Shown: positions 7,328 to 62,161 of the stretch, in pieces
How positions within the stretch are numbered: the first letter of the stretch is position 1
Layout: the number at the start of each line of letters is the position of its first letter
Assembly: GCA_003971905.1 (NCBI GenBank)
Contig: RSEE01000032.1
Location: 62,001 to 126,000 of the forward strand
Length of the DNA stretch: 64,000 nt
Source: Moniliella sp. 'wahieum'
Taxonomy: Eukaryota
Reading direction: 5' to 3'
The notes under the pieces: generated by a model
The model's database searches: none
The model's input: the letters and a program-made list of their open reading frames with translations, nothing else
Told to the model about the DNA's origin: nothing
Made by a program: the position numbers and the translations under genes

Positions 7328-7875
7328 ATGAGCGACCACGAGGGTGACTTTGGCGCGAGGATGCGTACCTCAATGATGCCGACGAGTTTGACCAGGAGAT
7401 GATTGAGGAGCAGCAAGACGAAGCCAACTTCAACCCGTGGAGGAGAACGTGGTGGAGTCGGGGCAACCGTTGGACGGAGAGTGTCGCGTGCGGTGCCCAA
7501 GGACCAGCGCTCGACCCACCCTACATGACCAAAACGAGCGCGCACGTATTTTGGGTACCCGTCATTGCAGATTAGGTACGTTGGATTGCCTTTGTTGTGC
7601 TTTGGTGGTGGGGGTAGGGGGGGGGGGGGGGGGGAGTAGGGATGGGGCGGATGGAGCGACGGAACCGAGGAAGACTGGACCACTGACTTACGTTGTCTCT
7701 TGCTCACTGCGCACTTAGCATGAACGCCCCCGTCCTTGTTCCTGTCGAGGGCGACAGACCCGTTGGCAATCGCGAAGGAGCTGCAAGCCAAGAAGGTGCC
7801 GCTTGTTATCCGCGCTACCTCCCGGATGGGAGCTACGAAGATTGGTCGGTAGAAGAGCTGATGATCACCGACTAG
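7328..7875 (+). CDS. RPB6: RNA polymerase I/II/III shared subunit Rpb6
   Basis: Acidic N-terminus, PYMTK..ERARILGTR..LQI, intron ~7576-7718, then MNAPVLVPVEG..IAxKELQAKKVPLVIRxYLPDGSYEDWSVEEL. Confidence 0.93.
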
Positions 7876-8451: not shown

Positions 8452-10628
8452 ATGCCCTCCGACCTGGCCAGCAAGCGGGCCGAGTACGCCAAGCTCTCCC
8501 ACGAGGAACTGGTTGAGCGTCTGCTCGCAGCCTAGGCACGCACCCCTTCCTCCCCCCGAAACCCGAGGAGGAGCCTCAACCCCCGCTCCAGCCCGCCCCC
8601 TCGCTCCGGGCCAAAAGGGCTGCTGCACTCAAGGGAGAACCCAAGGTGCCTAAGAAACCTACGCGGCCATTCAAAGTGCTCAGTCACCATGCCGCAAAGT
8701 GGCGCTTCGGTTCAGCTACGGGAACCGTACCTGGGCTTGGCGGCGCAGAACGGGATTGATACGTTGCTGCCGCTGGTGCCTGGGGAGGTGGGGAAAGCGG
8801 ATCAAGTAGGTCCGGGGACCAACTCGGTGGAAGCTGTGTTGTGGCCGCGTTGGTACAGGCGCGTTTGGTGGACCCTGAACAGGGGATGGAAGGAGCTGGC
8901 TTTTCCAGGTGCGGGCGCACGGATCGCGGTGTATCAGCGGCTGGGCAAGTGGTCAGTTTGTGGCTACGAAGCAAGCGTGTGGACGAGTGGGAAGCGCGCA
9001 AGGTAGAGCGGAGAGAATGGTTGCGCGGTATGAAGCGGTCCGAGGAAGGGACGAAATATTACTTCGCACCCGCTGCTTGACAAAGAAGGGAGACCAATCC
9101 CATTTGTTCCAGCAGCCGAGGAACTGCCATATGTGCATACGCTCAACCGCATTCTTCCCTCCACGATCCAGATTACGGGTTGGTCTCCCGTCCGGGCCGA
9201 CTTTAGCTCGCGCTTTGACTGTCGCTACCGGCACTACAAGTACTTCTTTTTCGGGCGCTCCCCCGGCGCTCCGCAGTCTGAGCGCGACGGCTGTACCTGG
9301 GATCCACAATGCCGGGAGTGAGTTGAACATTGGTGCGATGCGCCAGGCCGCCGCTCGTTTCTTGGGCGAACACGATTTCCGCAACTTGTGCCAAGATGGT
9401 ACCGGAAAAACAAATTACCAACTTCGTCGCCGCATCGATGGGGTGAGCATTGACCTTGTCGACCATGGGGCCGCTCCGTCGCGTGCCGGGGGACGACCCA
9501 GCGCTGAGTTCTACGGTTCAAGCGTACACGGACGACAACCGCGCTTCTCCTCCAGCGGGGGAGGAAGGAAAGTGGGAAGAAATGTTTGTGCTCAACCTAC
9601 GCGGCACTGCGTTCCTCTACCACCAAGTCCGCCACATGGTCGCTGTTCTCTTCATGGTTGGTGCCGGGTTGGAGGAACCGACCGTGGTGGATGAACTGTG
9701 AATGTCAAGACTGGTGCGGTGGCGGCGGATCGATTGGCGTGCGCCTGGCTGGCTTGCGAACAGGGCCGGATGCAGAACAAACGATCAACACATGGTCGTC
9801 CTCCCTGGTTCCACTGCCACTTCCATGGCAGGCTTCACAGCAGCGGACGAGGACCGTGCGCGCGCAGCACAGATGCGGCAAGCTGCCGAAACGGCCATGG
9901 CAGCTGCTCACCCTGCTACACAGCCGAACCTCGCACAGCTGAGCCAGGAAGTAGGACCGACCGGCCGAGGCCCAGACCCAGACCGAGATGGCGCACGAAT
10001 CAGCCTTGGAACAGCTCTACCACTCCCTGACGGTGATTGAGGGACGTCCGACGTACGAGATGGCATCGGATGCGCCGTTGATGTTGTGGGATTGCGGGTT
10101 CAAGCGACGGATGTACAATGGCGTGCTGGGCATACGATGGCCCACTGCTTCCCCCTGGGGAAGCGGTAACTGACGAGTGGGCCCTGAAGCAGATTGGCCT
10201 GCGGTGGTAGCCTCGGCGGGCGCACCAACAAGCAGAAGAACATGGTGACATGGCCGTCAGCAGTCTCTCTTTGGGTTTGCACGCGTCCTGGGTACGAAGC
10301 GCGATCAAGGCCCAACTGTATCGCCACTTTGTCTTTCAGCCCCGACTGCTCTTCGGGGGGATGGGTGCCAGCGTCTACCCTGTACCATCATGCACGACGA
10401 CCGACCCTCATCCCTCCCCCGCGGAAGAGGGTAGGGCGGGGGCCAGCGCATCCTCCTTCCTATGGGCATGCTACCTCGCGCTCGGGCCAGCCAGGGTGGA
10501 CACCAATGGCCCAATTAAAGCGGGACGATCCGCCGGAAGTGCGAAACGAGCGCTTCCGCACGGAAAAGGCGTGGAAGATGGAACGACGCGCTCGGAAGGT
10601 CGAGGCGAAGCGGCAGGCGCAAGCATAG
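8452..10628 (+). CDS. DEG1: tRNA pseudouridine(38/39) synthase, TruA family
   Basis: [24 protein letters not shown] (catalytic Asp), [61 protein letters not shown]. Confidence 0.9.
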
Positions 10629-11662
10629 CGTGCTTGAGATACCAATCGAGCACGAGTTACGAAGAGAAGAGAAAGGAGGAAAACGCACGTTTTATGAACG
10701 CCCCGTTAGCCCTGCCTGCCACCTGCACCTCCCTCCCTGTGCCGAATTCCTACTCGTTAGCCAGTAGATTAGTATATACTAGTACTAGTTACTTCAGGCT
10801 CAGGGTGCGCCCTCGCACCCGATACTACTAGGCACCCCACCCCACCCCCTCCCTTCCACAAACCAAAACGCCACCGTGGCTGACCCCAGCATCACTGGCA
10901 CGTCTACTCTCCATGGCCCCACTGTCTAATACGCGGACAGTGTCATTCCCTATCGTGAGTCAGACCGACGATGCGTAGAGGAGTTCTGCCCCCTCTCAGC
11001 TCCATCTCCGTTCTTTGTGCCGGTTCGACCAACTCTCGCGTGTGCGTCCCACTAGCTTGCGTTAGAGGGTGATGATATAGGTTCCCTGCACGGCCCTCAA
11101 TGGATCGGTGACGCTCGCCTAGCCGAGCGGAAGAGTTCCGCTCGCAGGCCGCTCACGCCCTGCTCGCTCCGTCTCCCTTCTCTCTCTCTCCCTTCCCTTC
11201 AGACGTTGCTGAAGACTTGGCTCACCGTGAGCACACTACGAGTAGGGAGGAAACCATCCGCCAGGGTATATAAACATTGACAAACCCAAAGCCATATTTG
11301 AGCCGCCACAGGTGGCTCGTGTGTTTGATCAAGCTCCTTTCAGTCCCTCGTCACAGAACCCTCATGCACTATAGGAGATCCATTGATTTCTCTGGCTTCT
11401 GTTTTGCTTGTTTTACGCAGCCTCAGATAGCCCCTGGTAGAGAGTGGCCGCTTGATGCCCTATATATAGGCGTTGTTGGTTGGCTTAGACCGCCACCACC
11501 ACCACCACCACTGCTTAGTGCGGTTACATCACACCCTCTCGAGGACCATCTAGACTCCAAGCCTCGTCAGAGTTACAACCCTTCTTTCGCACATCCAGTG
11601 AGCGACGGTCATCATCCATCACTCCCCATTTCCCTCGTATTCTTTCGGTGTATTTCGTCAAC

Positions 11663-13168
11663 AATGAGCACCATCACTCCACTCCTTATCTCTGGTCCTT
11701 CGAACCCATCCTGGGCCGAAGGCTTCTCCCACCTCCCTTTCCTTCATCGGGAATCTCGTTTGAACGTGCTTCTCAGCTGGCCAAGGACATGCTCAGCAAA
11801 TATGAGCCCTTGTACTTTGTTCTTGAGACGCAGTCGTCTTGGGTGACCACCCAAGGCGACAGCTCTCCTGCTTATGTCGACATTCGTCTATACACTATCT
11901 GGGGCCGGCTTGAATCACTCAAGGAGACGGTAAAGAAAATGGTCGGGGATCCTGTGAATCAGGTAGCAAGCGACCCGTTTGCCCAAGTTTCTGTCGCGCG
12001 TCAGTTCAGTTCAACGAATTGCGCGTGGCATGTTCTACCAATTCTTGTCCAGCGGTTGGAATTCATCTTCGCCCTCCACTTCACAGCCTTCCGGCACATC
12101 TACTGGCATCCCTGTTGAACCTTTGGAGCCTGTCCTGGACCTACGACCAGTCGTATCATCTCTCCCCACCGTCGAACAAACCCCTGATGCCACTACGCCG
12201 CACGGCGTCATCATCTTCTCCTCCACTCGATGCTGATGCGATCATGTCCACGTTGACTAGGCTCAGTTCCGTTCTGTCTGCGGAACGTCTCCTGGACGTG
12301 GCAGAGAAACGGTGGGGTACTGAAGTGGGCATACCCGCTGCCATGACGGTCCTAGAAAGGGTCATTTCAGAAAAGAAATTGGCTGAAAACTCACCATATG
12401 GGGCCACGACTCACACACCCACGGCCACAGATGTGCAAAACGCAGTCGATGGCCTCCAACGTTTGATCGACGGCGGACTCCGTTGGAGCCAGGTCAATGA
12501 GCATGCTGTCCGTGCGTATGGTGCCGACCTTGGCGTCCAGGCATGCACGGCATTGTATGAGCGCAACCGTAACGACGGCACGGATCCAAACACTTTGGCC
12601 GATTTGTCAATCTTATCGACCGCGTTGAGGAAGTGGACAAGTTTAAACCAGACAGCCTTTTTGGCCGTGGGTTAACAGTACCTTGGCCGCCCTGGAACTG
12701 ACGGTCAGGGGGGTCCGGGCGATCGTTGAATCGGGACCTGCCGATGCACACTACAAATCTGGTCTAGACCACAAACTGTTCTATCCCCTTTATGTTCACC
12801 TGCACCGTTCTGTACATGAATCGCTTGGTGCTCCCATGCCGGCTCTTGCATCCTCTCTCTTCGCCCTTCTCCGCCGAAAATACGGTCACACCACACCCAG
12901 GAGAAGCTTTCACGGTTTCGGCGCTGCTTCGCCTGACTATTGGTCGCATACTGGAGTTCAGTTTGTCCAGAAGCATCGACAATTGGCACGCCGGGCCCAG
13001 TTGTGTTGAATCGCCCTATGGATACTGAGCTCCTCCGTCTGGCGGTGATCAATGCGTGGTGGAGAAAGCGGAATGACCATCCCGTATGGTGGGATGACGT
13101 ACGAGGAACTTTTGACGCTGGTCGCGGAAGACGGAGGGCCTTCTGTGGCACGCCCAGAGTTTGAATGA
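11663..13168 (+). CDS. Orphan island protein A (apparently intronless, frameshifted)
   Basis: Overlapping + ORFs (11648-12118, 11979-12236, 12019-12675, 12683-13009, 12940-13164) tile into one protein-like read. TATA-like runs near 11266 and 11461. Confidence 0.5.
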
Positions 13169-13489
13169 GCCGGTTCATCGCTGGAGGGGGTATCCGCAGT
13201 GGGGAGTCCCGAGGGGGGCGCCGCTCTCATCACAGGTTTCATACCACATCTGAGATGTGGTGGTAGTTCTTCTCGATGAGGTTCCGCTATCGCAGCTTAT
13301 TCGGCGGTGCAGGGCGTTGTAGTAGCATTGACCCGGAAACGGCATTACCTATCCTACTGGCCCTCTTCATGGCACTGTGACATCGGACCGCCAACAACTT
13401 AGGATCTCACACTGTTTTCCCTTCGACTGTGTTATCTTTTATGCACGGACCTAGCTTTTTTTGTTCCAATCTTTGCACCCACTCGGATG

Positions 13490-14572
13490 TTTCTATCAGC
13501 TCCGGCCCCTCTATCGCTGAGCGAGGCCACGGCATCTATGCTTCCGGCTTCTCTGTCCCATCGTGAATAGGAATGCCTGGGGAGTACTTCCGCCAGCCAT
13601 AACCCTTCTTATGCAACATGATTCGGCGGCGCACCATCCATTTTTCAAGAATAAGAACCCATTTTCATATGATCCTGGTCATGCTTATATAGACAACGCG
13701 TACAGAGAGGTCCTGCAAGCGGCGTTTCAGTGAAAGATGACCAGGCGCAAATGATGTTAATGACGGGAGAAAGAATTGGATAAGTAGGGCGCCCAGGCTT
13801 GTTGCCTCTGGCCGGATGCACCCCCAACAGCTCAGTTTGGTGGAGTCCATGGCCTCCTCACCTCTGCGTTATATCCTGCGCGATCGATCAGGCCTCGGAT
13901 GATCTTAATGATCGAACTGATAAACCAGCTTTTCGAGTCAATCTCATTAATCAACGTAATCAACGTTCAACGTGTTCCACCTGAATTCACCTTCAAAAGC
14001 TTCAAGACCCGATCGTCGATGTTCTCCTGGGCCTTATTATAACACATAGTTACTACTCTTCCGTAGGGCGTGAAGAACAACACTTCCACCTTTAAGCTTT
14101 AAGCCTCTCGGCCTTCTCTCAGCGGCTCCAAGTGTCAGTGCTTCGCTCCCCTCTATAGCTTGTTGTCTTTTGATGGCACAGATGCAAGAAGATTTTTGAT
14201 CTTCATTTCCTCAACGTCCTCAGGCCTCAACCGTAAAACGCGCGTAACGTCCGCAAGAGCTTTACTTATATAGTCCTTACATACACTGCCCGCAAAACGC
14301 TGTTCGGAGGGAAGCCACAGGCACTTGGCTTGGCACGTCGATGATCGATGAATTAAGCTCAAGTTGAAGTTAAGTTGAAAAGCTTGACTAGCTTGAAGCG
14401 GGTCCATCGACATCGACCATCGACCATTGTGATCGATGATCGAGAGATTCGTCATCGAAGGCACCGGAATGAAGCCCTTTTTTGGAGAGAAGGTGGATCG
14501 ATAGCCTTTGCTAGCACCCAGAGACTTCCCGCTATGCTTCGTTTGGAGTTCCGAACTATTGGGCATTGACAT
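13490..14572 (-). CDS. Orphan island protein B (multi-exon, boundaries uncertain)
   Basis: ORF 14153-14572 (..DYISKALADVTRVLRLRPEDVEEMKIKNLL) followed by short exon-like segments bounded by GT..AG on the minus strand. Confidence 0.3.
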
Positions 14573-15116
14573 ATTGACACGTACTAACTGCCACAGAGGC
14601 TATATATGCATAAGAATCAGGCGTGACGACGAACTGCCATGACTAATGGTTGTCTCGATTGTTAGACACGGCTGGGGGGTTAACGTTTATCTAGCACAAG
14701 TTCCCGGCACAACTTGGTTTAAAATAATCCCGTCTGCTGTGCCCAACTGTAGCCAAGCTGCCATTTTATCCCAAACTCGCTGTCACAGAAGTATTAGCTT
14801 AACCTCGGGCCCGTGTTGCGCCAGGGTCGTATAGCGGGAAAATCAGGTGCATCCTCTCGTTCAATTCGCCGATTTGTTTAATCCCAAGTTGACATCCCTC
14901 GCATTACTTGGGAAAAAGCCACGCCAGAGGCTTCGACAAAAGGCATGCGTGATTTCCATGTGTAGGGGCCGGGACGGTGGTTCGCACTGTATCCCAAGTG
15001 TATAGGCGCATCTTTCGAGAAGTGGGACGTTTTCCCTATTCGATTAAATGCATCTCCTCTTTAGCTATATTATGGGTATAATAGGGAAAGGGTGTCCATT
15101 CTGGCCTGCGGCCACA

Positions 15117-16600
15117 TCAACTTTCGCCATCGCGGCCGAACACGTTGCGCTTCAAACTTGATGCCCCTTCAGCAGCCAGGACCACACCACCATCTTTCGT
15201 GTGGCCACCTTCTCCTCCAAACCAATGGGGCTTCGCGGTCATCTTACAGCGAGCTTTCGTAGGGAGAGGAGGTTGGTGAGCCCTTGAAAGAGCTGCTGAA
15301 GGAGGAGGAAAGCGAATGAGAGGAGAAATGCCTTCGACCCATTCCACCGTCTTGGTAATACCACTGTTTGCACGGCACTTCTCCATGATACGGGGTTCAT
15401 CGTCAATCAATGTTTGGATCTCCGCCCACGCGTCGATTGTTTTCGTCCTCTTGATGCGCTTTCCGGATGCGTGGCTCGTGGTGCCAGTGAGGTCTTCCTC
15501 TTGGCAGCTCATCAAACTCCTCGCCGATTTCGACCTGGTTGTCCCGAGATCCTGATTCCCTGCCCCTGGTGGGGGTTGAGTCTGGCTGCACGCCCCCGAA
15601 CATTTCCTTATAAATCGCTGCAGCCAAAGGAGGTTCACAGCTTTCCGACGAGACTCCATGGGTACGCCAGTTTGGGTATTAATCCCTATACCCCCCCAAA
15701 TCTTTCCTATCCATGACGAAGCCTGGCGCATCCAGTCCTCCTGGTTCGATGCATCCAAAGTCATGGGCTGAAATGATCCGAAGTCAATACCTCTGACTGC
15801 AAGCAACAAACGTCAAGGTCAAACGTACGGCCAAATCGAAAATGCGACGACGCAAGGTGGACCAGATCGGGTTCAGGAACACCGTCAATAGGACTTGGAT
15901 AAACTGTTTTTTCTCGACCGATGTGAGCCAGGAGTTGTCCCGCGTCGAAGTTAAACTCATCGACCTCGAGGGGAACAAGCCAGTTGCCGTCGGAAAAACA
16001 AGCCTAAATCTTTGTTGTTGAAGGCCCTGCTCTCAGGATGCAGAAAAACCCATACCGCGAGCTCTTTGCACCATTTCTGCTAGTAGCGATCCGTTCATGT
16101 AAAGAGAGAGAAAATGTCAGTACTTTTAAAGTATGATCCTGTGGGGTATGCGGGAGAGCTGATGGTCCTGACCTTGTTGTGCTCCAGCAAGCGTTCGAAA
16201 TACTGGCGTGGGTTGGCCATGGTAAAGCCCCTGGCGAATGATTCTTGCTTCGCACTGTTTGATACGATGAGCTCCCGAAGTTCCTTGTTGTCCTCATGGA
16301 GTAATGCCATTGCCCCTTGGAGTGATGCAAGTTGCCGGTGTACCGAGCGGTAACATGAAATAATGGCCTCCTCCGCCGGCGAAAGGGACAGATCAGGGGA
16401 ATACAAGGAAATTCCTCCTGATTAACGAGGCACTCTTCATCGGCATCTGTAGTGCGGGGAGCGAGGTGTCAACGGTAACATCCATCGCATCTTCATCGTT
16501 GTCCATCGCCGTCACGTTCTGCAAGTTGATAATAGGGACATCCCTCTGGTGCGGGAGGGAGGCATTCCGGAGTGGCAGTACTGGCTCAACAGAAAGATGG
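15117..16600 (-). CDS. Orphan island protein C, coiled-coil, two introns
   Basis: ORFs 16095-16406, 15784-15978 and 15117-15809 join through gtcagg..ag and gtacgt..cag introns. Coiled-coil segment RQLASLQGAMALLHEDNKELRELI; basic KRIKRTK. Start uncertain. Confidence 0.55.
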
Positions 16601-17059
16601 TGGCGGGAAAGGTGGTGGGCGGGGTATGCAGTTCGCGTAAAAGGATGCAGCTGTGTGTCGCTTCACCACCAGGGTCATACGGTCATACAGGGATCGAGCT
16701 GAGATTTGCGGAGCGAGAAGTGAGACTGCACCACCTCAATTTAGGGTTGGGCCACTGCTTCATCGATCATCACCCCAAAAACAAGCATGGTGTGGAGAGC
16801 ATGCTTGTGCTGCCCTGCGACGTAAGGCCGCTGTAGTCCCTGAGGGCAGGGTCGCTCGCGCGAAGAAACTATTGTCATGCAAGAACTATATGCAACACAA
16901 ATTTATGTAGTGGTAGATGTGACCTAGTGCTAGTGACCGTTCATCTCCCTCTCGTCGCTCGTCGCTCGTCCCGCTTGTCGATAAGATCGATAAGCTGTAA
17001 CATGTAACACGAGGAGACCACCGGGCCTACGGCCCGGTCAGCTGCTGCGTCACCACCTC

Positions 17060-17138
17060 AGCCACCGTTCCCCCTTCGCCACTTTAGCCACCGTTCCCCC
17101 TTCGCCACCTTAGCCACCGTTCCCCCCTTCGCCACCCT
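17060..17138 (+). repeat. 3 x ~26-bp tandem repeat AGCCACCGTTCCCCCTTCGCCACYTT
   Basis: Units start at 17060, 17086 and 17112; preceded by hairpin accgggcc-tac-ggcccggt at 17020-17038. Confidence 0.9.
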
Positions 17139-17399
17139 AAAAATATCACCGATTCGTGCTGACGCGCTGATGACTGTGCGGGTGGCGTGGAACGTGGCAC
17201 GGTCAGCTGATGTAAAAGTGTCCATGACGATTCCTCCAATCTTATAATTGGTGGCGCTATCAATACTCTTCCCGCAAGATGAACGGCTCGGTTTAGACGC
17301 AGCGTTTCCCTGTCCCAGCCTTCAGCTCTATCAATGATATGGATGCAACATAGAGATGTAATATGGGTATCCTCAGCCTTCGGGCTCAGGCTGGGCGCT

Positions 17400-19142
17400 G
17401 AGGCTCTCAGCCCCCAGGGGCCTGGTCACTCGTGAGCGCGTGAGCCTGCGTCGATTTGATACAATGAAGACTCTTCTTCTGTATAGCCACAGCCTTCCTC
17501 TTTCGAACAACAAGTTGAATATACGCGCTGAGAATGTCATAGCATGCCAGCGGAGAAATAGGTAAACGGACAACAGTTCAAGCCCACTTCCGGACAGAGA
17601 CACTGTTCACCCAGCTGAAGAACTCTCCTACAGGGACACCATCACATCTCCCAAGAAACAAAATCTGCCAGCCGCATGCGTATAATCGCCAGAACCCGGA
17701 ACTTGATCCGGAAAACGAAAACCATTGGTGCCCCGTCGCCAACAGTGACACTCACTCTATCAATGCGTGCTGTCCAAAGTTCCCCCCCCTACGCTTGGGG
17801 TCCATCTACAGGCACGTCAAGAATCACCGGGCACGCAAGGTCCAAGACCAACAGATGAAGGACCAGCTTGATACCAGGGCATCACTATTGATATCTTGCA
17901 GAGATTCTTCCGTTTTCAAAGTAGGACCTGCACGTGTCGCAATACGGGCAAATGGACACAACCCACCAGCCACGACTTATCCACGTCCTTTTGCACAAAG
18001 AAGTAATTCAACACTGCTTGACCCCTGGTTTCGCCTTACCTCGATGGCAAGGAAACAAGGTGGTGCATTCCCTCGTACCCCGGTGCGCCGAATCTATATC
18101 TCGGTGCTTGGCTGATATCAGGGCCAAACGGACGCCCGGTACGCCCGGTACGCCCCCCTCCGCAAAACATTTGGCAATTCAATGGTTGCTCGAAGCTAAC
18201 CGCGCATGCATCGCCCGCCAGGATATGTTACCTTCGAAGCCATATGTATCAACCAAATCATCGTTTGAATCGGGTACTTTCTCGCTCGCCTGACCCATCA
18301 ACAGGTGGCTCAGTCGATTCCCAGTACATGAACAGTCAAAGGTTGTACACTTACCCCGTTTCACCGTAGCCAAGAATGTGGTCGCCGAAACCGGGGAAGT
18401 GGAAGTGAAGCTTGAAGGTCACCGGGTAACCATTCGCATGGGAGGTTCCCGAACAACCCTCCGGGGAAACCAAGCTCCGTTTACGATTGGGGAGGTTCAA
18501 ACCATTGGCGTTGCAACTGACAAGGTGCACGGTTCCCTGAATTCGATCTGGATTGTCTATCAGCCAATGGTTGTAACTGGGCATGTTCAGCCTGAATCGG
18601 ATTGCCGCATCGTGGAAGAGTTGCCCCGCCATGTTGTACGATTGGGGCCTTGGCCAGGGTACGTTTACCATTCCTATAATGCTCCGAGGCATACATACCT
18701 CGCCCTCCTTCCACTCGATGAATATGATCCTCATCTTTTCCCCATCTCCATCTCCTGTTACGAGATGGCCGAGATGTTTGATGGTTGAACGTTGAACGTT
18801 GGATGTTGAGGGCCGATAGCCGATGGCCGATGGTTGGTTGTCCATGCACCATATATGTGGGCGAAATGTGTATATTTTACTGACAGCCGATGGCCGAAGG
18901 TCGATGTCGCCCGCCACACTAGGGTAGTGGCGCTGGTAGCCCAAGCCCGTCGGATCCTTTTCCAGTGTATTCCTGCCAATATTCCTTCGCACAGGATGAC
19001 AAGAATGAATATTCTCTAGTCTCTGTAGCTAATGTGCAATGCAATACACACCGTCAACTGCCTGCTTTCTGGTTTTTCCACCGTCGATGTTCGACGGAGC
19101 TCGATGGGGCCGGAAGAGAGTCGAAAGAGAAGAAGGAAGCAT
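17400..19142 (-). CDS. Orphan intron-rich island gene D
   Basis: ORF 18351-18992 ends at a gtaagt donor; several further GT..AG-bounded small exons follow. TTATAA ~30 nt upstream of an ATG near 19142. Confidence 0.35.
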
Positions 19143-20398
19143 CGTGGATTCAACGCTTGCGTGTTGGCACCTTTATAATAAGCTTCTCCAATGCGCGCTA
19201 TTTTAAAAGAGGACGGGCTTCGCTTGTCCCGAGCACGGCCTTCGTGGCGTCATGACGTGGTGAGTCGGTGCGATGGCAAGATGGAAGATGCAACAGCAGC
19301 CACCAGGGTAACCGGCAACATAGCCACCTGCGTTACAGAACTCGTAGCTCCAAGTAAGTACGAACATAGCACCCCCAGTGGCGTTACAAAAAAAGGCCGA
19401 GGCCGAGGTCGAGGCGCTGAGGGTCGAGGCGCTGAGGCTCGCCGGTGACCTGGTAGTGACTAGCTCCCGACTGCGCCTGAGCCGGGGCCCACACATGCCT
19501 CCAACCCTAGCAAACGGTCTAGTTATGCACCCGAGACAGAGACAAAAACGGGGAGCAGTTGGGTAGTGGATATGGCGACAACCAGGAGAGCCGACCACCG
19601 TGCCGGCTGCCGTGGGCCTCACGAGCCCCATGGGCCATACGAGCCACACGTGTTCTGGGGGGCCGCACGCTAGAGACAGTCGGCGTGGCGCGGAGCACAC
19701 GGCAGTCTACGCACAGCCCCATCGACCCATCGACCCGATCCAACACCCCCTATATCCACCCGGAGGAAGCGCCCAGCCAAGAGGCGGCGGACACGCCCGC
19801 CGAATCGGGCCGCCGATTCAATCGCCCTGCCTACTGGGTCGCACATTCCATGCCAGGCCCCCTCCCCCGCGCCGCTCCTGGTAGGCTCGCCCCATCGACG
19901 GTGGACCATCATCGACACGACCGACCTGCCATGCCAAAGTTCCATCGGCGGGCATCACATGTCACACAAGCATCACACGTCCACCATGCCAACACTGCCT
20001 GCCTGTGCGGCATCTCAGATGTCAGGCGGTCTCAGATCGCAGATCTCAGGGTCTGCCCGATCTCACCCATCGCCTGCGTCTCCCGCATCACGCATCACCT
20101 GTCCTGCGCACGGCGCGGGTGTGCGCGCTGGACAGCTCACTCCGCCTGCCGAGCGCTTCACGCTTCCACGTCGGGTTGACGCGTGACCGCCACGCATTTC
20201 CCGCCCCCGTCACCCACCCGTGCTGAGGCTCAGCGCTCGGCCCACACCACGCTTCCCGCTGCCAGGGGGCGGTGGCGCGGCCTGGGCGGCTGTGGGCGGC
20301 TGCGGGTGTGGCTTCAGCTTCTGCCCCTGCCTCCCTCCTCCATATACCTCCCCCACGGCCTCCGCTTCGCCCCCCCTGCCCCCCACCCCTCGGCCAGC

Positions 20399-21308
20399 AT
20401 GCTCGCCCAGTCCGCCTTCCCCTCCGCCCTGCCGCCCACGACCAACCTCCTCGGCCTCTCCTTCGGCACCCCGCCCGCCGTCTCCCCCTCGCCCCCCTTC
20501 TCCCCCGAATCCTCCCCCGCATGCTCGCCCGAATGCTCCCCGCTGATGCTCCCGGCTGGGCCCGCTCCAGCCGATGCGCTTTCCCCGGCCCCCGTCTCAA
20601 TCCCCGTCCCAGTCTCCGTCCCAGTCCCAGCCGGCTTCTCCGCCGGCCAATGGGGCGGGCGCGCTCGTAAACAGCCCCCGGCTCCTTTGGCTCTCCGCTT
20701 CCCCAGCACCCGCAGCCATCCCATCCCGCCCCCGGACGACGACTGGGAACCCTTACCCGTCACTCCTCATCAGCGCCACGCGTCGTGGTCGCGCTTCCTT
20801 TGCTGTGCCCCTCACGCCCTCCCATCGGTCCCCACAGCAGCTCCCTTTCCTTTCCGAATCTCCTCGCCTGGCTCTGCACGACCCCCACTCCGTTGACCCC
20901 ATTGGCCCCATCGGACCTACCGACTCGGGTTTCTCTGATGAACCGTTCAGCTGTCCCACCAATGCCAGCCGGACCACATTCTTTTCGGCGCCAAGCTCGG
21001 CCTTGTCCATGTCGACTGCCACTACCACCCCGCCTGCTTCGGCGGAAGAGGACTGCTTTGGCTTACTGTCAGCTCCCGCCACGGCATTCACCTCCACCTT
21101 CCCGCTGTTGCCGGGGCAAAATGCACCGTGGAGCGGGTCCGACGCTTGGTCTTGTGTCGCAGCCCCGACCGGGCCACCAAAAGGACGCGTGATCACGCAC
21201 CATGCCACTCAGCCCGCCTTGAAGACCCAGTTTCTCAGTGCCGAGACAGACTTGCCACTGCGTACACGCTTAGCTTCCGACTCGGCTTGTGGCCGGACCG
21301 AACCGTGA
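20399..21308 (+). CDS. Pro/Ser-rich hypothetical protein
   Basis: MLAQSAFPSALPPTTNLLGLSFGTPPAVSPSPPFSPES.. continues by frameshift into ORF 20574-21308; a pyrimidine-rich UTR-like tract follows. Confidence 0.45.
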
Positions 21309-23032
21309 AGCAACGTTGCAACTCCCGGGGCTCTTTCTTTCTTATTCGTTGGCGGCAAACGACCTAGTATGGTGCTGGGGCCTGGGTTGACCCCGATGCA
21401 ACAGCAGCTATACAGGCGGTGCCGACCACCAAGGCTAAGCGTTTCGCATTTTGCGTTTCGCGCGCCGTGCGCTGTGCGCCGTGCGTCTTGCGCCGTTTCC
21501 CTTTTCGCTTTTTATACCTATTGCCGCTCCCAGCTCGGCCTGATACCTGCCCTTCTCGCTCTACATTCGCTTTTCTTCCTCGACCCCAAGTGGGTCGACA
21601 ACGCTCCTTCTCCCACGGTGCGAGAGATTTCTTTCCTTACAGCACTCCCACTCCCCTCTGACCCGCCACTTCATTACCCCATGCGTGCCTTCCCCCCCCC
21701 CCCCCCCCCCCCCCGGCTCTCGCGGTTCTCCTTCCTTTCCGTCAAGGCCGTTCTCTTGGCCCCACCCTACCGCGTTCGGTGCCCGTATTGCCTTGTCTCT
21801 CGTCTCTCGTCCCCCGTCTTTCGTCTTTCGTCTCTCGTCTCTCGTCTCTCGTCTCTCGTCGTGTGTCTTATGTCTTGTGTCTTGTCTCTTATTGCCTCTT
21901 GTCTCTCGTGTCAGCTGTTACAGCTCTGCCTTGTCCATTGCGTACGGGTTTGGTTTCCTTCCTCCACCGTCGCTCCTCGTTGTCCAACTCCTGTGCTCTT
22001 CCCTACCGATTCGTGCCGGGTGCATCCCATCTCGCTGGTCTCGCCGGTCTCGCTTGAAGTTTGAAGCTTGAAGCCGGGCTGTGCAAGGCAACAAGGATGC
22101 TCGATGCACCCCGCGTCCGCGTCTGTTGGGTGTGTGCCCACAGCTCACATGCCACTTTGTCACAGGCAATCCATGCCTCGCACTGGTTTCACTCCTTTCC
22201 TGGCTCGGGACCCGTTCTCATCAATCTCATCAATGTCCTCAGTGCTTTGGGGTGGGTCTGGCCTGGTCTGACTCGCGTATCTATCGTTGCAGGGTATAGT
22301 CTTCTGGCTCGGGCATCTTGTACCACAGGGTGGTTCTGGCTGGCAGTTACTAGTTACGCATTCTGATGCATGATGCATGATGGTCTCATCGATCTCAGTC
22401 GGCTTCTCGTCGACCATCGAATATCGACCGGCAACCATCTCGATCATCGATGTACTCCCTACGATCTAAGACGGAAGGCGTGGCGCCAGGGCCCTCCAGT
22501 GCCCCCCTGCATTTTGCCCCGCCGTTTTTGCCTCCCTCGACTAGCGACTGCGCCTGAGCCTGAGGCCCTGGAGCCACTGCCCAGCCTGAGCCTAAGCCCC
22601 CACCGATCCTTCGATCCATCGATCTATCGATCTATCGATCTATCGATCATCGCTCCTCCACCTCTGGTCCTACTCTTTTTAACCGGTTACCGGTTACCAT
22701 TATACAACGGGCTTGACCAAGTCTGATCACCAGCGTAGCTTCAGAACTTCCACTTTGGAATAGGATTGCTATTCAATATTCACATGATTCACAGCATACT
22801 GAGCAAGAGACAGAGCGAGATACTCGATACGGGGCCATGCGAGCCCGGTGAGCTTTTGCCTGCTTGTTGGGGGTGGGGGGGGGGGTGCAACCATGTGTGG
22901 AATGTGGCCTTTCCGTCACTGGATGAGCTCGTTGAACTCAATGAGCGCTCAGGCCAAACCCATGGCTTCCATTGACATGCCCTCTTCTTTCCAGCATCAT
23001 CTCTGCCACTTGTGGGTCCGATCAGGTACGCG

Positions 23033-25138
23033 TTACGCCTGCTTTGTAGCGCAGCGTTCACCACGCTTCGGCTGCCTTGAGCCGGTTCGTCGCGCTTGGC
23101 CACAAGCTGAAGTCCAGCCGGGGCGCCATCAAAGGCATGGCGGTACGTAGCGTACTCGGATGCGACGCGGGCATCGTCCTCGCCAAACGGACCGCGGGTG
23201 CGCGCTTGGGCTTTCTCCTTCTCGACAAACTGTTGGTCCAGTTCTGCGTTGGCCACCACGCCCGAGGGAAGGAGAGAGCAGGTAATCGAGTAAGTTCCAC
23301 TGGGACGTTGTAGCCCCAGTAGTACGCCGTCTCGGGACGTTCGGCGACACTGGTGGTGGCTGGGCAGAGTAGTACGTCGATTCCCGCCTGGTCCCACGCG
23401 CGCCAGTAGACAGCCTTGTACGTTTCCCGCTTGGCGCGCAAGTCAAACACCTTGCTCGCTGACAGCGGCGCCGAGGGGACATAGGGTTCCTGCAGAATAA
23501 ACTCAGTGAGTGGGTCCAACTTTTCTTGGCCTGCAGCAAGCAGCGCACGCGTGCGTACCGCCCCATCTTGCCAGTAGAGCGAGCGGATCAAGTCCCAGGC
23601 CACCTTGTGGTCGCCCAACGGCTCGGGCAACTCTTTGATCTCGAGCCAGTCTTTGCCCTCGCCTTGGCTCAGGGCAATCAACTGATCGACCACATGCTGC
23701 AATGCACGTCGGATCGGCGGTTGCGGCACTACCACCCCATCGTCCCGTTGCACCCCAATGACCAACTTGGTCTTGAGTCCGCGCGCCTGACGTACCTTGC
23801 GCCCCAACTCAGTCCACGACGGCACCAGCGCTGGGTCAGTGTCGTCGTCCCCCTCGGCCCAGGGACGTGGCTGGAGACTGCCATCGCGGTCCCAGAGCGC
23901 TTCGGTACCCGCGAGCGCAGTGGGACTCAGCACGGTGCGCATGAAGAGTTGCACGTCGCGCAAGCTGCGTGCCAATGGTCCACACACGGGCGCTACACCC
24001 ATGTTGCCCGGTCCGGGCGAGCGTGAGCCCACCAACGACAGGCGGAACGCCGAAGGTCGGAACCCCCACAGACCCGACATGGCCGCTGGCTGACGGATCG
24101 AACCACCAATGTCGCTGCCCAATCCCAGTGCACTGGCCCCACTCGAGACCGAGGCACCTTCCCCGCCACTCGAGCCGCCGGGGGAAAGGGCAATGTTGTG
24201 CGCATTGAGGGTTTGACCAAAGGCAAGGGAGCGCGTGTCGAGCTGCATGATGGTCGTTGGCATTGTTGTCTTGGCCACGACGATCGCGCCAGCTTGAACG
24301 AGGGCTTGGACCATCACAGCTTCTTCCTCAGGCGTCGGTTCGCCAATCAAACTCGCGTCGAGCCACTGTGCCCCCGGAGCGGTGGGATCGACCACCTCCT
24401 CGGCCCGGAGCGCGTCAACAATAAAGCAGTGTATTAAGCGTGCCCTGGACGCCAATGTTGCCCTGTGCAAAGCGTGGCGGTAGAAAAAATGGGGGGTTAG
24501 CCACCGTACGTACGGTCCCCCCCCCCCTCCTCTCCAATCAACTCCACGCCCATCCAACCCGCCCGGGTAGGGAAGAAACGAACCTTGATGCTAATGGGGA
24601 GGCCATGCAAGGGCCCCAACGCCTCGCCGCGCGCCCGTTTGGCATCCAACTCCTTGGCGCGCGCACGAGCCGGTTCAGCGAGCAAATGAACAAACGCACC
24701 TAGCGCTTCCTGTGCCACCGCCGTACGAGCCAGCGTCGCTTCCACCACCTCGCTCGCTGTCACGCTGCCTTGCTTCATGGCGTGGACCAGTGCCGACGCA
24801 TCGAGCAGCGTGGCGGCCCCTCGCTCTGAAGGTGCGGTACCGGGAGCGAACAGGACGGCTTGGGCAGTGTCCGAAAGACCGGGCAGGACGCGAACGAGCT
24901 CAGCGGTGGGAGCAGCAGCCAGGACCTGGGCAAAGCTCGGCGCAGCAGGGCGGGAGGCGTGGTCGTAGGTGCGGTCAGTGAGTGCGGTGCGCCATTGGGT
25001 AATGGCGGGGTAGGCGGTACGAATAGACTCGGCGATGGGATTGACGTTGGCGCGTACGCTGGCGGCGAGCGCAGGCAGGGAGGGGTAGTCGGTGCGGGAG
25101 TACCCGCCGGCGGCAATGGGGTGGGTGGAGGTGGCCAT
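23033..25138 (-). CDS. Amidase-signature family enzyme (acetamidase-like)
   Basis: GPLHGLPISIK (catalytic Lys), intron 24463-24583, PGGSSGGEGA and GLGSDIGGSIRQPAA (Ser-cisSer), WNLLDY, GAPAGLQLV. 3' end approximate. Confidence 0.92.
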
Positions 25139-25707
25139 TGGGGTGCAACGGGGTGTTGGAGCAGAGGATGGAGGATGGTGGTGTGGCCGGCGCAGGGAGT
25201 AGAAAAAGGGGCCCGGGGCGGATAAGAATGTGGCTGGACCGCCGCTGGAAGCGCGCTGGGCAAATCCTGAATCCTGAATCCTGGATAATCAATCACGTCT
25301 TTTGTCGATTATTGTTGTGCTACGGGGCATGATGACCATCATTGATGTGTTGGGGGATGGCCTGTCATTGACACGGCGACGGTACTTTTACGCAAGCTGT
25401 TGACGCTTCGCCCCCCTTTGCTCTTTTAAGTTGAAGCTTAACTGTTGAAGTGGTACTTAGTGACCTGTGTACCGTCCCGTACCTGTATACCCGTCCTTAT
25501 CAAGCAGGTGCTCGTGGGTGCGTTTGGATGATTAATTGCGATTGTCGATGATCGAGATGATCCCCATTACTCACCTCCTCTCGGCGCCGCCCCCGGCCGC
25601 GCTGCTAGCCATCGCAGCGTCATTATCTCCTCCTTCGCCTGCCCAATCTCCGGTTTATCTCCCCTTTCAAATTTCCGGTCGGGGCCATTCCTTATTTAGT
25701 GATAGAA

Positions 25708-35572: not shown

Positions 35573-37208
35573 TTAAGCAATGTAGGTCGAAGCCGAGACG
35601 TTGCCACCACGGCCAGTCCAGTTGATGTGGATGTCCTGGTTGAGGGGCAGGTTCTCGTTCTCCTCACCGGGCAGGACGCGGAAGGTGTGAGCACCAAAGT
35701 AGTCGCGCTGGGCCTGGATCAGGTTAGCCGGCAGGCGCTCGGTGCGGTATCCGTCATAGTACGCCAGAGCGGTCGAGTGGGCCGGGGTGGGGATACCGGT
35801 GAGGGCACTGGTGGCCACCACGTTACGCCATCCGGCCTCGGCCTTGGCAATGGCATCCACAAAGAACTCGTCAAAGAGCAGGTTCTCCAATGTTGGGTTC
35901 TTGCGGTAAGCCTTGGTAATGTCCTTGAGGAACACCGAGCGGATGATGCAGCCGCCGCGCCACATGAGGGCAATGGAAGGGTTGTTGAACGTCCAGTTGT
36001 ACTCCTTGGCCGCCTCGCGGAACATCATGAAGCCCTGAGCGTACGAGATGATCTTGGAAACGTACAGAGCCTGCTCCAAGTCCTTGAGAAGCTGCTTCTT
36101 GTCACCCGAGTAAGGACGGGTGGCCGTAGGCTTCAGAATCTTGCTGGCGCGCACACGCTCGTCCTTAAGCGACGAGAGGCAGCGAGAGAAAACAGCCTCG
36201 CCAATGAGCGTGACGGGAAGGCCCATGTCGAGAGCGTTGACAGCAGTCCACTTGCCCGTGCCCTTCTGGCCGGCCTTGTCCATGATCTTCTCGAGAAGAG
36301 GCTTGCCATCCGTGTCCTTGTACTTGGACACGTCACGCGAGATCTCAATCAGGAACGACTCGAGGGGGCCCTTGTTCCACTCGTCAAACGTAGCGCTGAT
36401 CTCATCGTCCGACATGCCCAGCGTGCGCTTCATGATGTCGTACGACTCAGAAATCAGTTGCATGTCACCATACTCGATACCATTGTGGACCATCTTGACG
36501 TAGTGGCCCGAGCCTGAGGGGCCAATCCAGTCGCAGCACGGCTCGCCGTCCGACTTGGCCGCAATGGACTGGAAAATGTCCTTGATCTCGGGCCAAGCGG
36601 CAGCCGAGCCACCAGGCATGAGCGAGGGGCCGTGGCGGGCACCCTCCTCACCGCCGGACACACCCGTGCCAACGTAGAGGAAGCCCTTGTCCTCAATCTC
36701 CTTGGCGCGACGAATCGAGTCGGGGAAGGGAAGTAGGTGTTGCCGCCGTCAATGATGATGTCACCCTTCTCGAGGTGAGGCTCGAGCATCTGGATGAACG
36801 AGTCAACGGCAGGGCCAGCCTTGACAAGGAGAATAACCTTGCGCGGCGGGCTTGAGCAGCTTGACAAACTCCTCAATGGAGCGGGCACCGACAATGTTGG
36901 TGCCCTTGGCCTCGTTGGCCATGAAGTGGTCAACCTTGGAGACGGTACGGTTAAAGGCGGCGACCTTGAAGCCGTGGTCTGGAAGAAGTCAGGAACCGAC
37001 CTCGGACAATTAGGGGCAGGGAGCGGCGTACCGTTCATGTTGAATCAGGTTCTGGCCCATGACGGCCAGGCCAATCAGGCCAATGTCGCAGCTGAGCGAG
37101 GACAGGAGACGAGGGCAGAAGCGAAGGCAGAGGCGAGGGCAGAGACGAGGTCAGGATGGGGGAGGCGGCCTGGAGCAACAGGGCAACGTACACAGCCTCG
37201 GTAGACAT
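35573..37208 (-). CDS. GND1: 6-phosphogluconate dehydrogenase, decarboxylating
   Basis: MSTEAV / DIGLIGLAVMGQN / DHGFKVAAFNRTVSKVD across two 5' introns; GHYVKMVHNGIEYGDMQLI, GQKGTGKW, QAQRDYFGAHTF, NWTGRGGNVSASTY. Confidence 0.97.
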
Positions 37209-39608: not shown

Positions 39609-42600
39609 TCAGGCGTGCTTCCAGCACTCTTTACCTCTTCTTCTCCCCCTTTTTCTTCCCCTTCTTCGTCTTGCCCTTGTCCTTCCTCGTCCCCTTCCTC
39701 CTCGTCCCCTTCCTCCTCGTCCCCTTCCTCCTCTCCCCTTCCTCCTCCTCCTCCTTTTCCTCTTCCTCCTCCTCCTCCTCCTCTTCATCCACATCCTTCT
39801 CCTCCTCGTCTCCTTCACGGGAATCCACCTTGGCGGGCGTGTGCAAACGGCCACCCAAGCCGAGGATGGGTTCGTTACGTTGCTCCTCCTCCTCGTCCCA
39901 CTGCGCATCCAGCTCATCCTCGTCCGACTCTTCCTCCGAGTCAGAGGAGAGGAGCTCAATGACTTCCGCCCCGCCAGCGAGGGGACCATTATGCTTCTCG
40001 GCCGTGTCCTCATCGGCAGTGTCACTGTCGCCCCCCATATGGTCGTCGTCTTCCGTAGGCCCATCCTCCTCCGAATCTTCGTCTTCCTCTGAGGGGAGAA
40101 CAGCCGGAGGGCCAGAAGGTTGCCCATCAGAAGAGTGCCCATCTTGCTCTTCCTCGCCACGCCCTTCTTGGGCGTCGCCAGATTCGCCAGACTTTGTCGG
40201 TACCAGTTCTTGAACACCAGTTGGGAATGTGGCATCGGCTTGCTGCGTCTTGGGGCTGGAATTCGGCTCGACGCGCGGCGTGGACTGTTGCGTCAGGGTA
40301 GATGGGTCGATTGGGTTGGTGGAATTGACGTTCGGGTCAATGCTCTGCTCAGCAATTGCTGTAACAGTTACAGTTTGGGAGGGGGTGGCTTCCGAAACGG
40401 CGACTGGGGCGGTAGAGGGCATTTGCGTCGGGTACAAAGAGGCGTCGTGACTGGATTCACCGCCCAACTGGGCGCTCGCCTCTTCAACCCGCGCTTCTGT
40501 TTCTGTGGGATTAAGGAGCGCACCAGAGCAGGTGTCAGGTAGGTCGAACTGGCTCAAAGTGGGGATCGCTGCAGCCTCCGAGCTGGTAAAAGGCAAATCC
40601 ACCAGGCCCTGAAAGCCATCTTTTTCAACTTCCGTCGACCCATGGTCAGGCTCGGAGGCTCTGTCGGTCGACGTAGCGGGGTTGGGAAAGGAAGGCTCGG
40701 CAGCCAGAGTGGGCTGAGTAGCTGGTTCCACATCTTGACTGGCAACCCGGGCCTCTTCCGAGGAAGGTGCCTTCTCCATGGGGTTCGGCTCCATTGGTAC
40801 AGTTGAAGGCTGAGGCACATACCCATTCTGGGTTATAGGCTCGAAGACGAACTCACCAGTAGTACCAAGAAGGCTGGGGTCGATTTGGCCAGGCGCATGT
40901 GGATCATGGGCACCTTGGGCACTTGCTGCAGCCATAGCGACCAAGACTGGATCAATGGTCTCAGATAGTAAAACGCCTTCTGTGACCAGGTCTGAAACGG
41001 GAGCTGGAGCCGGAGCCGGAGCCGGGGCCGGAGCTGGATCCGCAACTGTGACGACGGCATACGAAGACGGAGCATATGTGGGAGGCGGCGGCGGTGGCAA
41101 TTCAGATGAGGAAGGCAGGTTCTCCGTTCCCATATCAGACACAGGCCAACTCGGTAGCGGATCGAATCCGAAATGGTCCAGGTTGGAGTCCATGTGGCTT
41201 TGGTTGTCAGCGAAGAATGGCGGGTCAGCTGTGGCGAAGGCATGGGAGTACCGATCCAAATCGGTGGGATGGGATAGGTGGTCTGAGAGGGGTCTGTGCT
41301 GCAGGTGGTCCGGATCAGCCTCAGACCTACCCTCAGGAAGATTCTTGCCAATCGTCGGCTCATCTTCATCACCCCCTTCCTCTTCTTCTTCTTCTTCCTC
41401 CTCCTCCTCCTCCTCCTCCTCCTCCTCCTCCTCGTCATCTTCGTCCTCATCTTGCGGATCGCTGTCGATGTCACCAAAGGGAGGCAAATATTGATGTGGC
41501 GGCATATCTTGGGAGACTGGTGGCTTCGGAGCAGGCTCATCTCCTTCACTGTCGCTGTCACTGAGGACAACAATATGGTCAGGCTCGTGTGAAAAGGGCC
41601 GAGGAGGCGAAGCAATCTGATTCGGCTCCTCCCGTTGCTCTTCATCTTGGGCTTGTTTAATTTCGTTTTGACCATCCTCCATTGATTCGGAGACGTCACT
41701 TAAATGGGCCTCGTCCAGTTCATCGTAGGACGCCTCGCTGGCTTCGTACTCGACAGGAGGCGCTTGCTCCAAGATCATGCCCTCTTTCGAGTCCAGGCGT
41801 CGGTCTTCCGCTTCATCGTCCTCAGCCTCGTCGTCCTCAGCCTCGTCGTCCTCCGCCTCATCGTCCTCCTCGTCCTCCTCGTCCTCCTCCTCTTCCTCCG
41901 CCTCCTCTCATCCTCATCCTCCTCGCCCTCATCCTCCTCGCCCTCATCCTCCTCGTCCTCGTCCTCCTGCGCGAACCGCTTCAAACCACTGACTCTGTCC
42001 TTTTGGAATGGCTCGACAGAGGATGGTGAAGGGTTGTCACCGATTTCCTAAAACGCAGACATGTCAGTTAGTGTTCAGTGCCAAACATTGTCAAAGACCG
42101 GTAACGAACCTGCACCAAAGAAGCACTCTTTTTGGGCACTGATGGTTGCGGAGGTAGCTGGGCTGCAGCCAGTTGGCCGCGAGCGTTGAGGAGTGCATCA
42201 ATGTCCAATTGACCATCCTTAGTCGTGAACGCAGCAGCAAATCGGGAAGGAGGGAGCGGGTCCGCGGACAACAAAGATGTGTTGGACACCTTTCCCTGTC
42301 CCTGTGCTGAACTGGGTCCGTCATAGGAAGCTAGGTGACTCGATCCCACAGGGTGCGCCTCCGCGTCCGAGCTGGAGCTGGAGCTGGAGCTAGAACCTGA
42401 GTCGGACTCTTCGTCGGATTCTTCGTCGGAATCTGAATCTGAATCTGAGTCTGAACCTTCCGAAGAGGAAGAATCATCGCTGGATGCGCCGCTCGATTTG
42501 GACCCAGGTGCCGACTCGGTAGGATTCTTCTTCCCCTGAGGTCCCACCGCGCCCAAAGGAATAAATGAGCGCGCCAAGTCAGTTCCAACATCTTGTTTCT

Positions 42601-60235: not shown

Positions 60236-61158
60236 CCCTGGGAATCACGAGAACATGCAACGCTTTTTTGTTGAGCCACCACGGGTGGATCCTGGATTTT
60301 GGCCAACGTCCCTTCAGTCCTTTCTTAGGCCTAGAGTTCTCCATTGTTTTCTCATTTCCGTTTTCCTTGTTCCGCAGCCTAGCCCTTTATGGCGAGCTGG
60401 TTGATGTGGTTTCTTTGTAGGTGTTGTCAGTTGGTTAGAGCGCGTCCAATACCACCACCTGGCACTGGTGCGTTTGCATCACTCTCGACGACCATTTTGA
60501 CTCCAGGTCTCATCATTTTCACCTTTTCGAGACCCAAGATTTACAAATGAGGTAGGGATACCATGTGAGGCGTTGTTAGGAGAGGCGAAGCGCGCAGGGC
60601 TGAGGAGATCTGCTGGGAACAGTAATAGCATCACGGAAAACAAGCAACTGATTGAGCTACGCCGGGGATCAATGAGCTATTGGCACGCCTGGAAAGAACC
60701 AGCAGCGTCCAGTGACGTGTAACCCTGTACGTTGGCACGTCCAACTAGAACAAGGGCAGACATGTGGGGTCCGGAGTCCCGAGGCCTGAGGCCTGAAACC
60801 TGAAAGTGGATCTGACGCATGAGATGGCCATGAAGCTTCAAGCTTCAAACTTCAAGCTTCAAGGTGGATATCCGCCTTCGGACTAGCCAACCCACAACAC
60901 TTCGGAAACGCCCCGTGGAACTCCGAAACATAATCGGACTGAAGAGGGGCCAAAGGGGCCTTGGCACCAAAAGCCGCAAGCCGCCACATGGCGCCTATTG
61001 AAGAGGCCGATAAAAGGTCGATAAGGTGAACCCTATTTTGGTCGTAACCGGTAACCCCACTCTGTTCTGCCCCTTGCAACAAAACATATTTAACCTCGGT
61101 CCAATTCCATCGACCATCGACCATCTCGACCATCCGGCTGCGGTATCCCACGTCCACC

Positions 61159-61882: not shown

Positions 61883-62161
61883 TGGCAGACGCGCCCCTGT
61901 GGATCATTCGTCCGAAGGTTTCCCCTGGCCATTCCTACTACCCACGGCTCACATGATGCATGGCTCCAAGTTCAAAGGTCCCTTGGCCGGCCCTCTACTG
62001 TTCTACAGCAGGCCTACTACGCAATTTAAGTTTTCCTGTTTCGTTGACAACACAGTCGGGCGCGAGTCGCGATGGTGCGCCCGACCGAGCAATGCAATGC
62101 ATAGTATATGGGGAATAAACACAAGTCACTTAATGGGCAAAGCAGGTCCAGGCACATTTGC

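Follow-up and report, generated by a model that had tools for sequence, protein, structure and literature searches.

The closest described counterparts of the locus considered here are the orphan genes of filamentous fungi. In Magnaporthe oryzae, according to one published study (PMC6319468), gene length and GC content tend to drop from old to young genes, the codon adaptation index and the level of transcription differ between genes of different age, and genes of equal age form local clusters. The locus that we compare with them is a low-GC segment at ~11.2–19.4 kb of a 64,000-nucleotide stretch of contig RSEE01000032.1 from Moniliella sp. 'wahieum' (positions 62,001 to 126,000). We call the whole stretch the window, and all coordinates below refer to it. 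The segment shares with fungal orphan genes a lack of detectable homologues and domains, a GC content and codon bias below those of the neighbors, and an arrangement of several such genes side by side. By analogy with what that source describes, the low GC content and putative orphan-like genes of the segment match the trends of young genes in another filamentous fungus. The difference is that the genes of the segment are putative, being read from open reading frames (ORFs), and that, as the database includes no close annotated relative, they are undatable.

Other kinds of fungal sequence also invite comparison. Specifically, transposon or giant-cargo accessory regions of the Starship-like and Helitron-like type likewise consist of a block of unknown genes with a different GC content lying between conserved genes. 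Typical giant elements are far larger than the 8 kb of this segment. Unlike such elements, the segment has no captain tyrosine recombinase, Rep/helicase, transposase, reverse transcriptase, terminal repeats, repeat marks, or marks of repeat-induced point mutation (RIP). The AT-rich, RIP-degraded repeat blocks of ascomycetes resemble the segment in that their GC content falls below that of the surrounding gene-rich DNA. Here, in contrast, the drop is mild (to 52%), RIP indices are as elsewhere in the window, and repeat content is lacking.

We lean toward reading this segment as native, gene-sparse DNA in which lineage-restricted, weakly constrained genes (A, C, and probably D) are accompanied by long spacers. 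The notion is that two or three lineage-restricted genes, A on the plus strand and C and D on the minus strand, would be separated by long spacers within a native chromosome. Two factors would account for the low GC content: third codon positions that, unlike those of the conserved neighbors, are not GC-rich, and a large non-coding share. Low expression, young age, or weak selection could explain the missing GC-rich third positions. The genes would be young or fast-evolving, like orphan genes in other fungi, and part of the frame breaks in A, C, and D would be assembly indels. Below, we set out the evidence that bears on this reading and on its rivals.

Composition of the low-GC segment

In 1-kb windows between 11,001 and 19,000, GC content is 0.49–0.55, compared with ~0.60 on both sides. 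The original prediction, a first description of this locus made from its letters, had the sequence losing its GC richness from 10,785 to ~19,390. The interval so defined has a GC content of 52.6%, versus 59.7% elsewhere in the window. No other 8.6-kb stretch is as poor in GC: windows outside the interval have values of 56.4–64.3%. A maximum-likelihood fit with two change points places the edges at 11,180 and 19,400, with 52.2% GC between them and 61.0% in the flanks (log-likelihood gain 69.7). Thus, sliding GC bears out a sustained drop and the right edge stands, while the left edge belongs ~400 nt further to the right.

A comparison with the remainder of the window indicates what kind of DNA this is. 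We call DNA ORF-free when it is not covered by any ORF of at least 100 aa. Outside the segment, GC content is 0.518 in ORF-free DNA and 0.603 in ORF-covered DNA. Inside, the corresponding values are 0.516 and 0.530. Because both classes are low inside the segment, the whole interval, ORFs included, matches the genome's own non-coding composition. The GC content at third codon positions (GC3) follows suit, at 0.45–0.63 in ORFs of the segment versus 0.57–0.79 in a reference set of 11 ORFs outside, of which 9 have a Pfam family. GC content and codon bias are thus below those of conserved genes, as in clusters of orphan genes. From GC content at the ORF-free level, low GC3, and a large non-coding share, we infer that a foreign origin is not needed. 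In this GC-rich genome, the drop to ~52% marks missing codon-biased coding sequence, not foreign DNA.

Two further measurements agree with a native composition. First, after correction for base composition, no foreign oligonucleotide signature was found: the GC-normalized dinucleotide distance (delta*) between the segment and the rest of the window is 0.045, within the range of 0.018–0.075 spanned by 27 other 8.2-kb windows, 8 of which are more deviant. Second, in fungi that have RIP, repeated DNA often shows its signature. In the segment and elsewhere in the window, respectively, TpA/ApT is 0.65 and 0.60, and (CpA+TpG)/(ApC+GpT) is 1.23 and 1.23. With both indices as in the rest of the window, the idea of a RIP-mutated repeat region was rejected. 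Composition gives no pointer to foreign origin or to mutated repeats.

The same figures suit a different account, namely that the interval is essentially non-coding, either a long intergenic spacer or a locus for a non-coding transcript, and that its ORFs are chance products of DNA with 52% GC. In addition to the agreement with ORF-free DNA elsewhere, GC content is nearly flat across the three codon positions in the ORFs A3 (0.56/0.52/0.54) and C1 (0.53/0.54/0.55).

Coding signal and frame breaks

Coding signal in the three ORF chains, A on the plus strand and C and D on the minus strand (Table 1), is modest but not nil. The segment contains 3 ORFs of at least 200 aa, where 300 second-order Markov simulations gave 0.52 on average and 3 at most, and 9 ORFs of at least 150 aa, where 3.0 were expected. 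This surplus of long ORFs is only modest. A frame-tolerant test, which finds the fewest frame switches that let 1500 nt be read without a stop, gives 3 switches on the plus strand (11.3–12.9 kb, chain A) and also on the minus strand (from 16.64 kb downward, chain C). When the better strand of each simulation was taken, 3 or fewer switches per 1500 nt sufficed in 7 of 200. Regarding three-base periodicity, 20% of the 83 windows of 300 nt in the segment exceed the shuffled 95th percentile, versus 5% by chance and 47% outside; in chain A, the fraction is 33%. In 900-nt windows, the mean period-3 signal is 1.31 in the segment, 1.01 in shuffles, and 4.13 outside. The real gene DEG1, next to the segment, is also weakly periodic (mean 1.69, 38% of 300-nt windows over threshold).

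These results bear on both sides of the proposal that the interval is non-coding. In its favor, mean periodicity is little above that of shuffles, the top ORF falls inside the simulated range, recognition by a protein language model is low, and no homologues were found. Nonetheless, the number of ORFs of at least 200 aa equals the simulated maximum, the frame-tolerant ORF length lies at the 3.5% tail on both strands independently, and short windows exceed the shuffled percentile four times as often as chance would have it. Moreover, a piece of A yields a fairly confident single-sequence helical model, and DEG1, a real gene, is likewise weakly periodic in this error-laden assembly. We consider an entirely non-coding interval unlikely.

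The layout of the ORFs corresponds roughly to the one plus-strand gene converging on three minus-strand genes of the original prediction: a plus-strand chain at 11.6–13.2 kb faces minus-strand ORFs at 14.15–14.6, 15.1–16.7, and 18.2–18.85 kb. The further suggestion that the minus-strand genes contain introns is not confirmed. In a loose count that has no power, intron-like motifs number 6 and 5 on the two strands, versus 8.5 and 9.2 expected, and assembly indels mimic the frame changes that exons would produce.

That such indels are present is established by genes outside the segment. Specifically, in the gene encoding 6-phosphogluconate dehydrogenase (6PGD), the ORF piece at 36,806–36,988 (minus strand) matches residues 30–74 of a yeast 6PGD chain in the PDB, an adjoining piece in a different frame matches residues 71–118 of the same chain, and a third ORF supplies the remainder of the domain. 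Because the protein coordinates abut, introns would not fit between the pieces. By eye, the frame breaks (36,700–36,990) fall in short C runs. Similarly, the C terminus of an amidase, as defined by two relatives with 66–72% identity, aligns to three frames within the 260 nt of 23,050–23,310. Since these genes are essential or clearly intact elsewhere, their frame breaks are assembly indels. Uncorrected indels affect every ORF-based call in the window, and assembly errors prevent exact gene models.

This finding also bears on the idea that the ORF chains are decaying pseudogenes drifting toward non-coding composition. In its favor, several frame switches are needed to read through each of A, C, and D, their GC3 has relaxed to the non-coding level, and their periodicity is weak. 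Yet no intact paralogue or homologue was found that could be the source of decay, and, given that housekeeping genes in this assembly carry the same indel errors, frame breaks in A, C, and D are no evidence of decay and prove neither introns nor pseudogenes. Decay strikes us as highly improbable.

Searches for homologues and for mobile-element marks

For the best-supported coding piece of chain A, AlphaFold2 run on the single sequence returned a model with a mean pLDDT of 69.4 and values of at least 70 at 97 of 162 residues. Judged by eye, the seven helices of the model form two similar three-helix units. When the model was compared with the folds in the PDB, nothing matched at E <= 0.001 (best E 0.69, TM 0.18–0.30), so the structural comparison that had been recommended for the locus recognized no known fold. 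Chain A may thus be a gene whose helical product belongs to no known family.

Sequence searches with A3 agree with the fold search. The PDB returned 0 matches, the ESM Atlas gave no usable match for A3 or D1, and an exhaustive phmmer search against 1.84 billion representatives revealed no true homologue. The sole phmmer match (E 1.8e-23) is P0001, a bacterial-looking repeat protein of 1394 aa. In that match, one stretch of A3, within residues ~114–230, aligns to each of eight repeat units of P0001 at ~34 bits each, around a conserved core of ~18 residues (T-x-T-D-V-Q-N-A-x-x-x-L-Q-x-x-I-D-G). Repetition of one short match inflates the E-value, so the hit is not counted as homology, and P0001 was rejected as a homologue. 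The likeness is probably a chance similarity of a short helix-start motif.

For the minus-strand ORFs, word-index searches covered proteins of 0.55–1.75 times the query length. They found no homologue of C1 among 462 candidates of 127–405 aa and none of D1 among 71 candidates of 123–394 aa. In the PDB, C1 had one sequence match (E 0.34) and D1 had 0, and no relatives of either were found in 185,579 prokaryote genomes. With regard to a donor lineage, homologues were therefore found neither for A3, which had been searched exhaustively and matched a short repeated motif only, nor for C1 and D1, at near lengths and in the prokaryote genomes. When 10 Met-to-stop guesses, 5 each for the segment and the flanks, were looked up in the protein collection as exact sequences, 0 of 10 were present, indicating that the annotation of this genome is absent from the database or differs from those guesses.

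The original prediction held that none of the proteins of the locus has a recognizable domain and that transposase, Rep/helicase, reverse transcriptase, and tyrosine recombinase are missing. Both statements are confirmed. Specifically, 142 ORFs of the segment were scanned against Pfam, 54 with a length of at least 70 aa and 88 with 40–69 aa, and none reached a cutoff; no transposase, reverse transcriptase, integrase, tyrosine recombinase, or helicase/Rep is among them. Two sub-threshold matches, to DUF7296 (E 0.044, 14.8 bits, cutoff 27) and to PSMalpha (E 0.012), were set aside as chance, since 142 queries are expected to produce them. NCBIfam and PHROGs matched 0 of the 13 main ORFs.

The edges are equally plain. 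No terminal inverted repeats, long terminal repeats, or direct repeats bracket the segment (10.6–11.3 kb compared with 19.0–19.7 kb), and the longest cross-region repeat pairs, 14–25 nt at 76–93% identity, are at chance level. Neither a target-site duplication nor terminal repeats were found at the edges, and no part of the segment, its ends included, has a second copy within the 64-kb window. Mobile-element-like signatures had been noted at the left edge and at 16.9–17.1 kb. The former is an AT-rich palindrome that, with up to 3 mismatches allowed, occurs once in the 64 kb and is thus single copy; the latter is a tandem repeat whose 26-nt unit is found nowhere else in the window.

An insertion, whether an element itself, cargo carried by a non-autonomous or very large mobile element, or DNA acquired horizontally, would form an accessory island absent from relatives. 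The sharp GC boundaries, especially that at 19,400, the genes without any homologue, and the resemblance of a short motif in A to the repeat unit of a bacterial-looking protein speak for such an event. However, the segment lacks element proteins, bracketing repeats, a further copy in 64 kb, and a RIP signature; its dinucleotide signature is no outlier; the bacterial match consists of one stretch set against eight repeat units; and no relatives of C and D were found in prokaryote genomes. We regard an insertion as very unlikely. Thus, of the interpretations that accompanied the first description, neither non-autonomous element cargo nor an unknown class of element finds support, given in addition that GC content equals that of non-coding DNA. 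A fast-evolving gene cluster, the remaining interpretation, fits the weak but non-random coding signal in three chains together with the lack of homologues. Rather than a candidate for an undescribed system, as had been proposed, the locus reads as something ordinary, a few orphan-like ORFs clustered in DNA that resembles non-coding sequence.

Other known kinds of locus were considered as well. A mating-type locus was a candidate since such loci are divergent, low-recombination islands. It was rejected because Pfam detected no homeodomain (HD), HMG, alpha-box, or STE3 in ORFs of at least 40 aa. Separately, three small ORFs ending in a CaaX motif occur at 18.8–19.2 kb, with no receptor nearby. 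Rfam, at E <= 0.1 over 9–21 kb, gave no match, and ARAGORN returned nothing from the whole window, including no tRNA.

Table 1. Features of the low-GC segment and its immediate neighbors (window coordinates)
Feature	Position	Strand	Remarks
Left neighbor, tRNA pseudouridine synthase (DEG1/PUS3-like)	8800..10628 (start approximate)	+	PseudoU_synth_1, E 5.3e-10, on 9447-9701; stop read at 10,626-10,628
AT-rich palindromic stretch (left-edge signature)	10764..10795		~140 nt past the DEG1 stop; in GC-normal DNA, outside the low-GC segment
Low-GC segment	11180..19400		Change-point fit and 1-kb profile; composition of the window's non-coding DNA
ORF chain A, candidate gene	11665..13164	+	~1.5 kb readable with 3 frame switches
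Pieces of chain A	11519-12118, 11914-12675 (A3), 12647-13009, 12937-13164	+	From ORF list
Best-supported coding piece of A	12187..12672	+	162 aa, seven predicted helices
ORF-poor spacer	13297..15119		GC 0.49; ORF-free segments 13297-14155 and 14600-15119
ORF B	14153-14599	-	148 aa; open frame only, no independent support; Pfam 0 matches
CATCGA-type short tandem motifs in the ORF-poor spacer	14404-14427		Tandem-repeat scan
ORF chain C, candidate gene	15117..16662	-	3 switches per 1500 nt from 16,640 downward
Pieces of chain C	16393-16662, 16095-16421 (or, in another frame, 16004-16468), 15761-16003, 15117-15812	-	From ORF list
Tandem repeat	17053..17136		26-nt unit x 3.2 copies, 93% matches
ORF D	18179..18845	-	Main piece in ORF 18351-19028, first Met 18845; possible next piece 18179-18418
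Right neighbor	19,400-22,100		Putative gene; GC up to 76% (200-nt windows), low complexity

Neighboring genes, host lineage and significance

The content of the window is that of fungal nuclear DNA. In addition to 6PGD and the amidase, conserved genes encode a Zn(2)-Cys(6) cluster protein, a G-protein beta subunit, a proteasome AAA ATPase, an importin, an ATP-synthase alpha/beta subunit, and a Zap1-like zinc finger protein. The naming of DEG1 as the left neighbor agrees with its PseudoU_synth_1 match. On the right, ORFs rich in Pro, Ser, and Ala occupy several frames of 19,400–22,100, with a period-3 signal of 4.3 at 20.4–21.3 kb, and a Pfam scan of these ORFs revealed no family. This neighbor is probably a gene for a disordered protein.

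Several observations concern DNA in and around the segment. A plus-strand ORF of 190 aa at 17,543–18,115 is supported by nothing beyond its open frame, and downstream of D (17150–18180), the minus strand is broken into pieces of 17–92 aa. Tandem repeats of short motifs (CATCGA, TCGATC, and GGCCGAT types) occur in ORF-poor DNA at 14,401–14,427, 18,784–18,901, 22,603–22,651, and 61,098–61,124, and in this genome such a motif may be common in intergenic or leader sequence. Homopolymers flank the segment: ~18–23 G at 7,612–7,647 and ~22 C at 21,677–21,714, mutually complementary and 14 kb apart. Most likely, both are plain homopolymer tracts, whose lengths are error-prone in this assembly.

Farther away, a minus-strand ORF of 758 aa (39,631–41,907) has long Glu/Asp runs at its start, a Lys-rich tail, and no Pfam family; it may encode an acidic nucleolar or chromatin protein. 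A degenerate repeat array at 62,026–63,131 has spacings of mostly 21–51 nt. There, one frame opens as an ORF (62,026–63,051) with a translation rich in Asn, Ser, Tyr, and Gly and without a Pfam family.

The amidase provides a gauge of how well the host lineage is represented in databases. Its gene region spans 23,058–25,288 on the minus strand, and the best named relatives of its ORF at 23,058–24,590 are from Ustilaginomycotina, at 39–46% identity, with Violaceomyces palustris at 46%. Two other database proteins are 72% and 66% identical to it. Judged from these sequences, the source organism seems to come from a sparsely sampled branch of the fungi, and the protein collection includes no close annotated relative of it, which limits the meaning of a search that finds no homologue. 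Thus, the description of the genes as orphans stands insofar as no true homologues were found; given that the neighboring amidase has no named relative above 46% identity, orphan status is weak evidence for anything more.

A number of points weigh against the reading of the segment as native DNA with lineage-restricted genes. The coding signal as a whole is weak. The longest ORF has 253 aa, short of the 263 aa that mark the 95th percentile in simulations, and no 900-nt window in the segment reaches a period-3 signal-to-noise of 4, versus 31% of those outside. Language-model recognition is 1826 for A and 1141 for D, both below 2300, the level reached by 91% of proteins of known families. D folds at a pLDDT of 38, which is uninformative and was not used. 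Regarding lineage restriction, the search was exhaustive for A, and it extended by word index to proteins of 0.55–1.75 times the query length for C and D; with the amidase as a guide, orthologues may exist in unsequenced congeners. Finally, native origin is read from composition, and an old, ameliorated insertion would look alike.

Bolder versions can be imagined. Specifically, the segment could be a young, lineage-specific addition, either a "nursery" in which non-coding DNA gives rise to genes or an insertion that is old and ameliorated, that encodes at least one new helical-repeat family (gene A) and is absent from the DEG1-flanked site of relatives. We hold this to be quite unlikely.

For the study of this genome, polishing of the assembly is needed before gene models, pseudogene calls, or orphan labels in the window can be trusted. 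If the segment is indeed native, gene-sparse DNA with lineage-restricted genes, it would represent one more small lineage-restricted gene cluster in a fungal genome, useful for annotation and no new system, with the predicted helical protein of gene A as its one mildly interesting piece.

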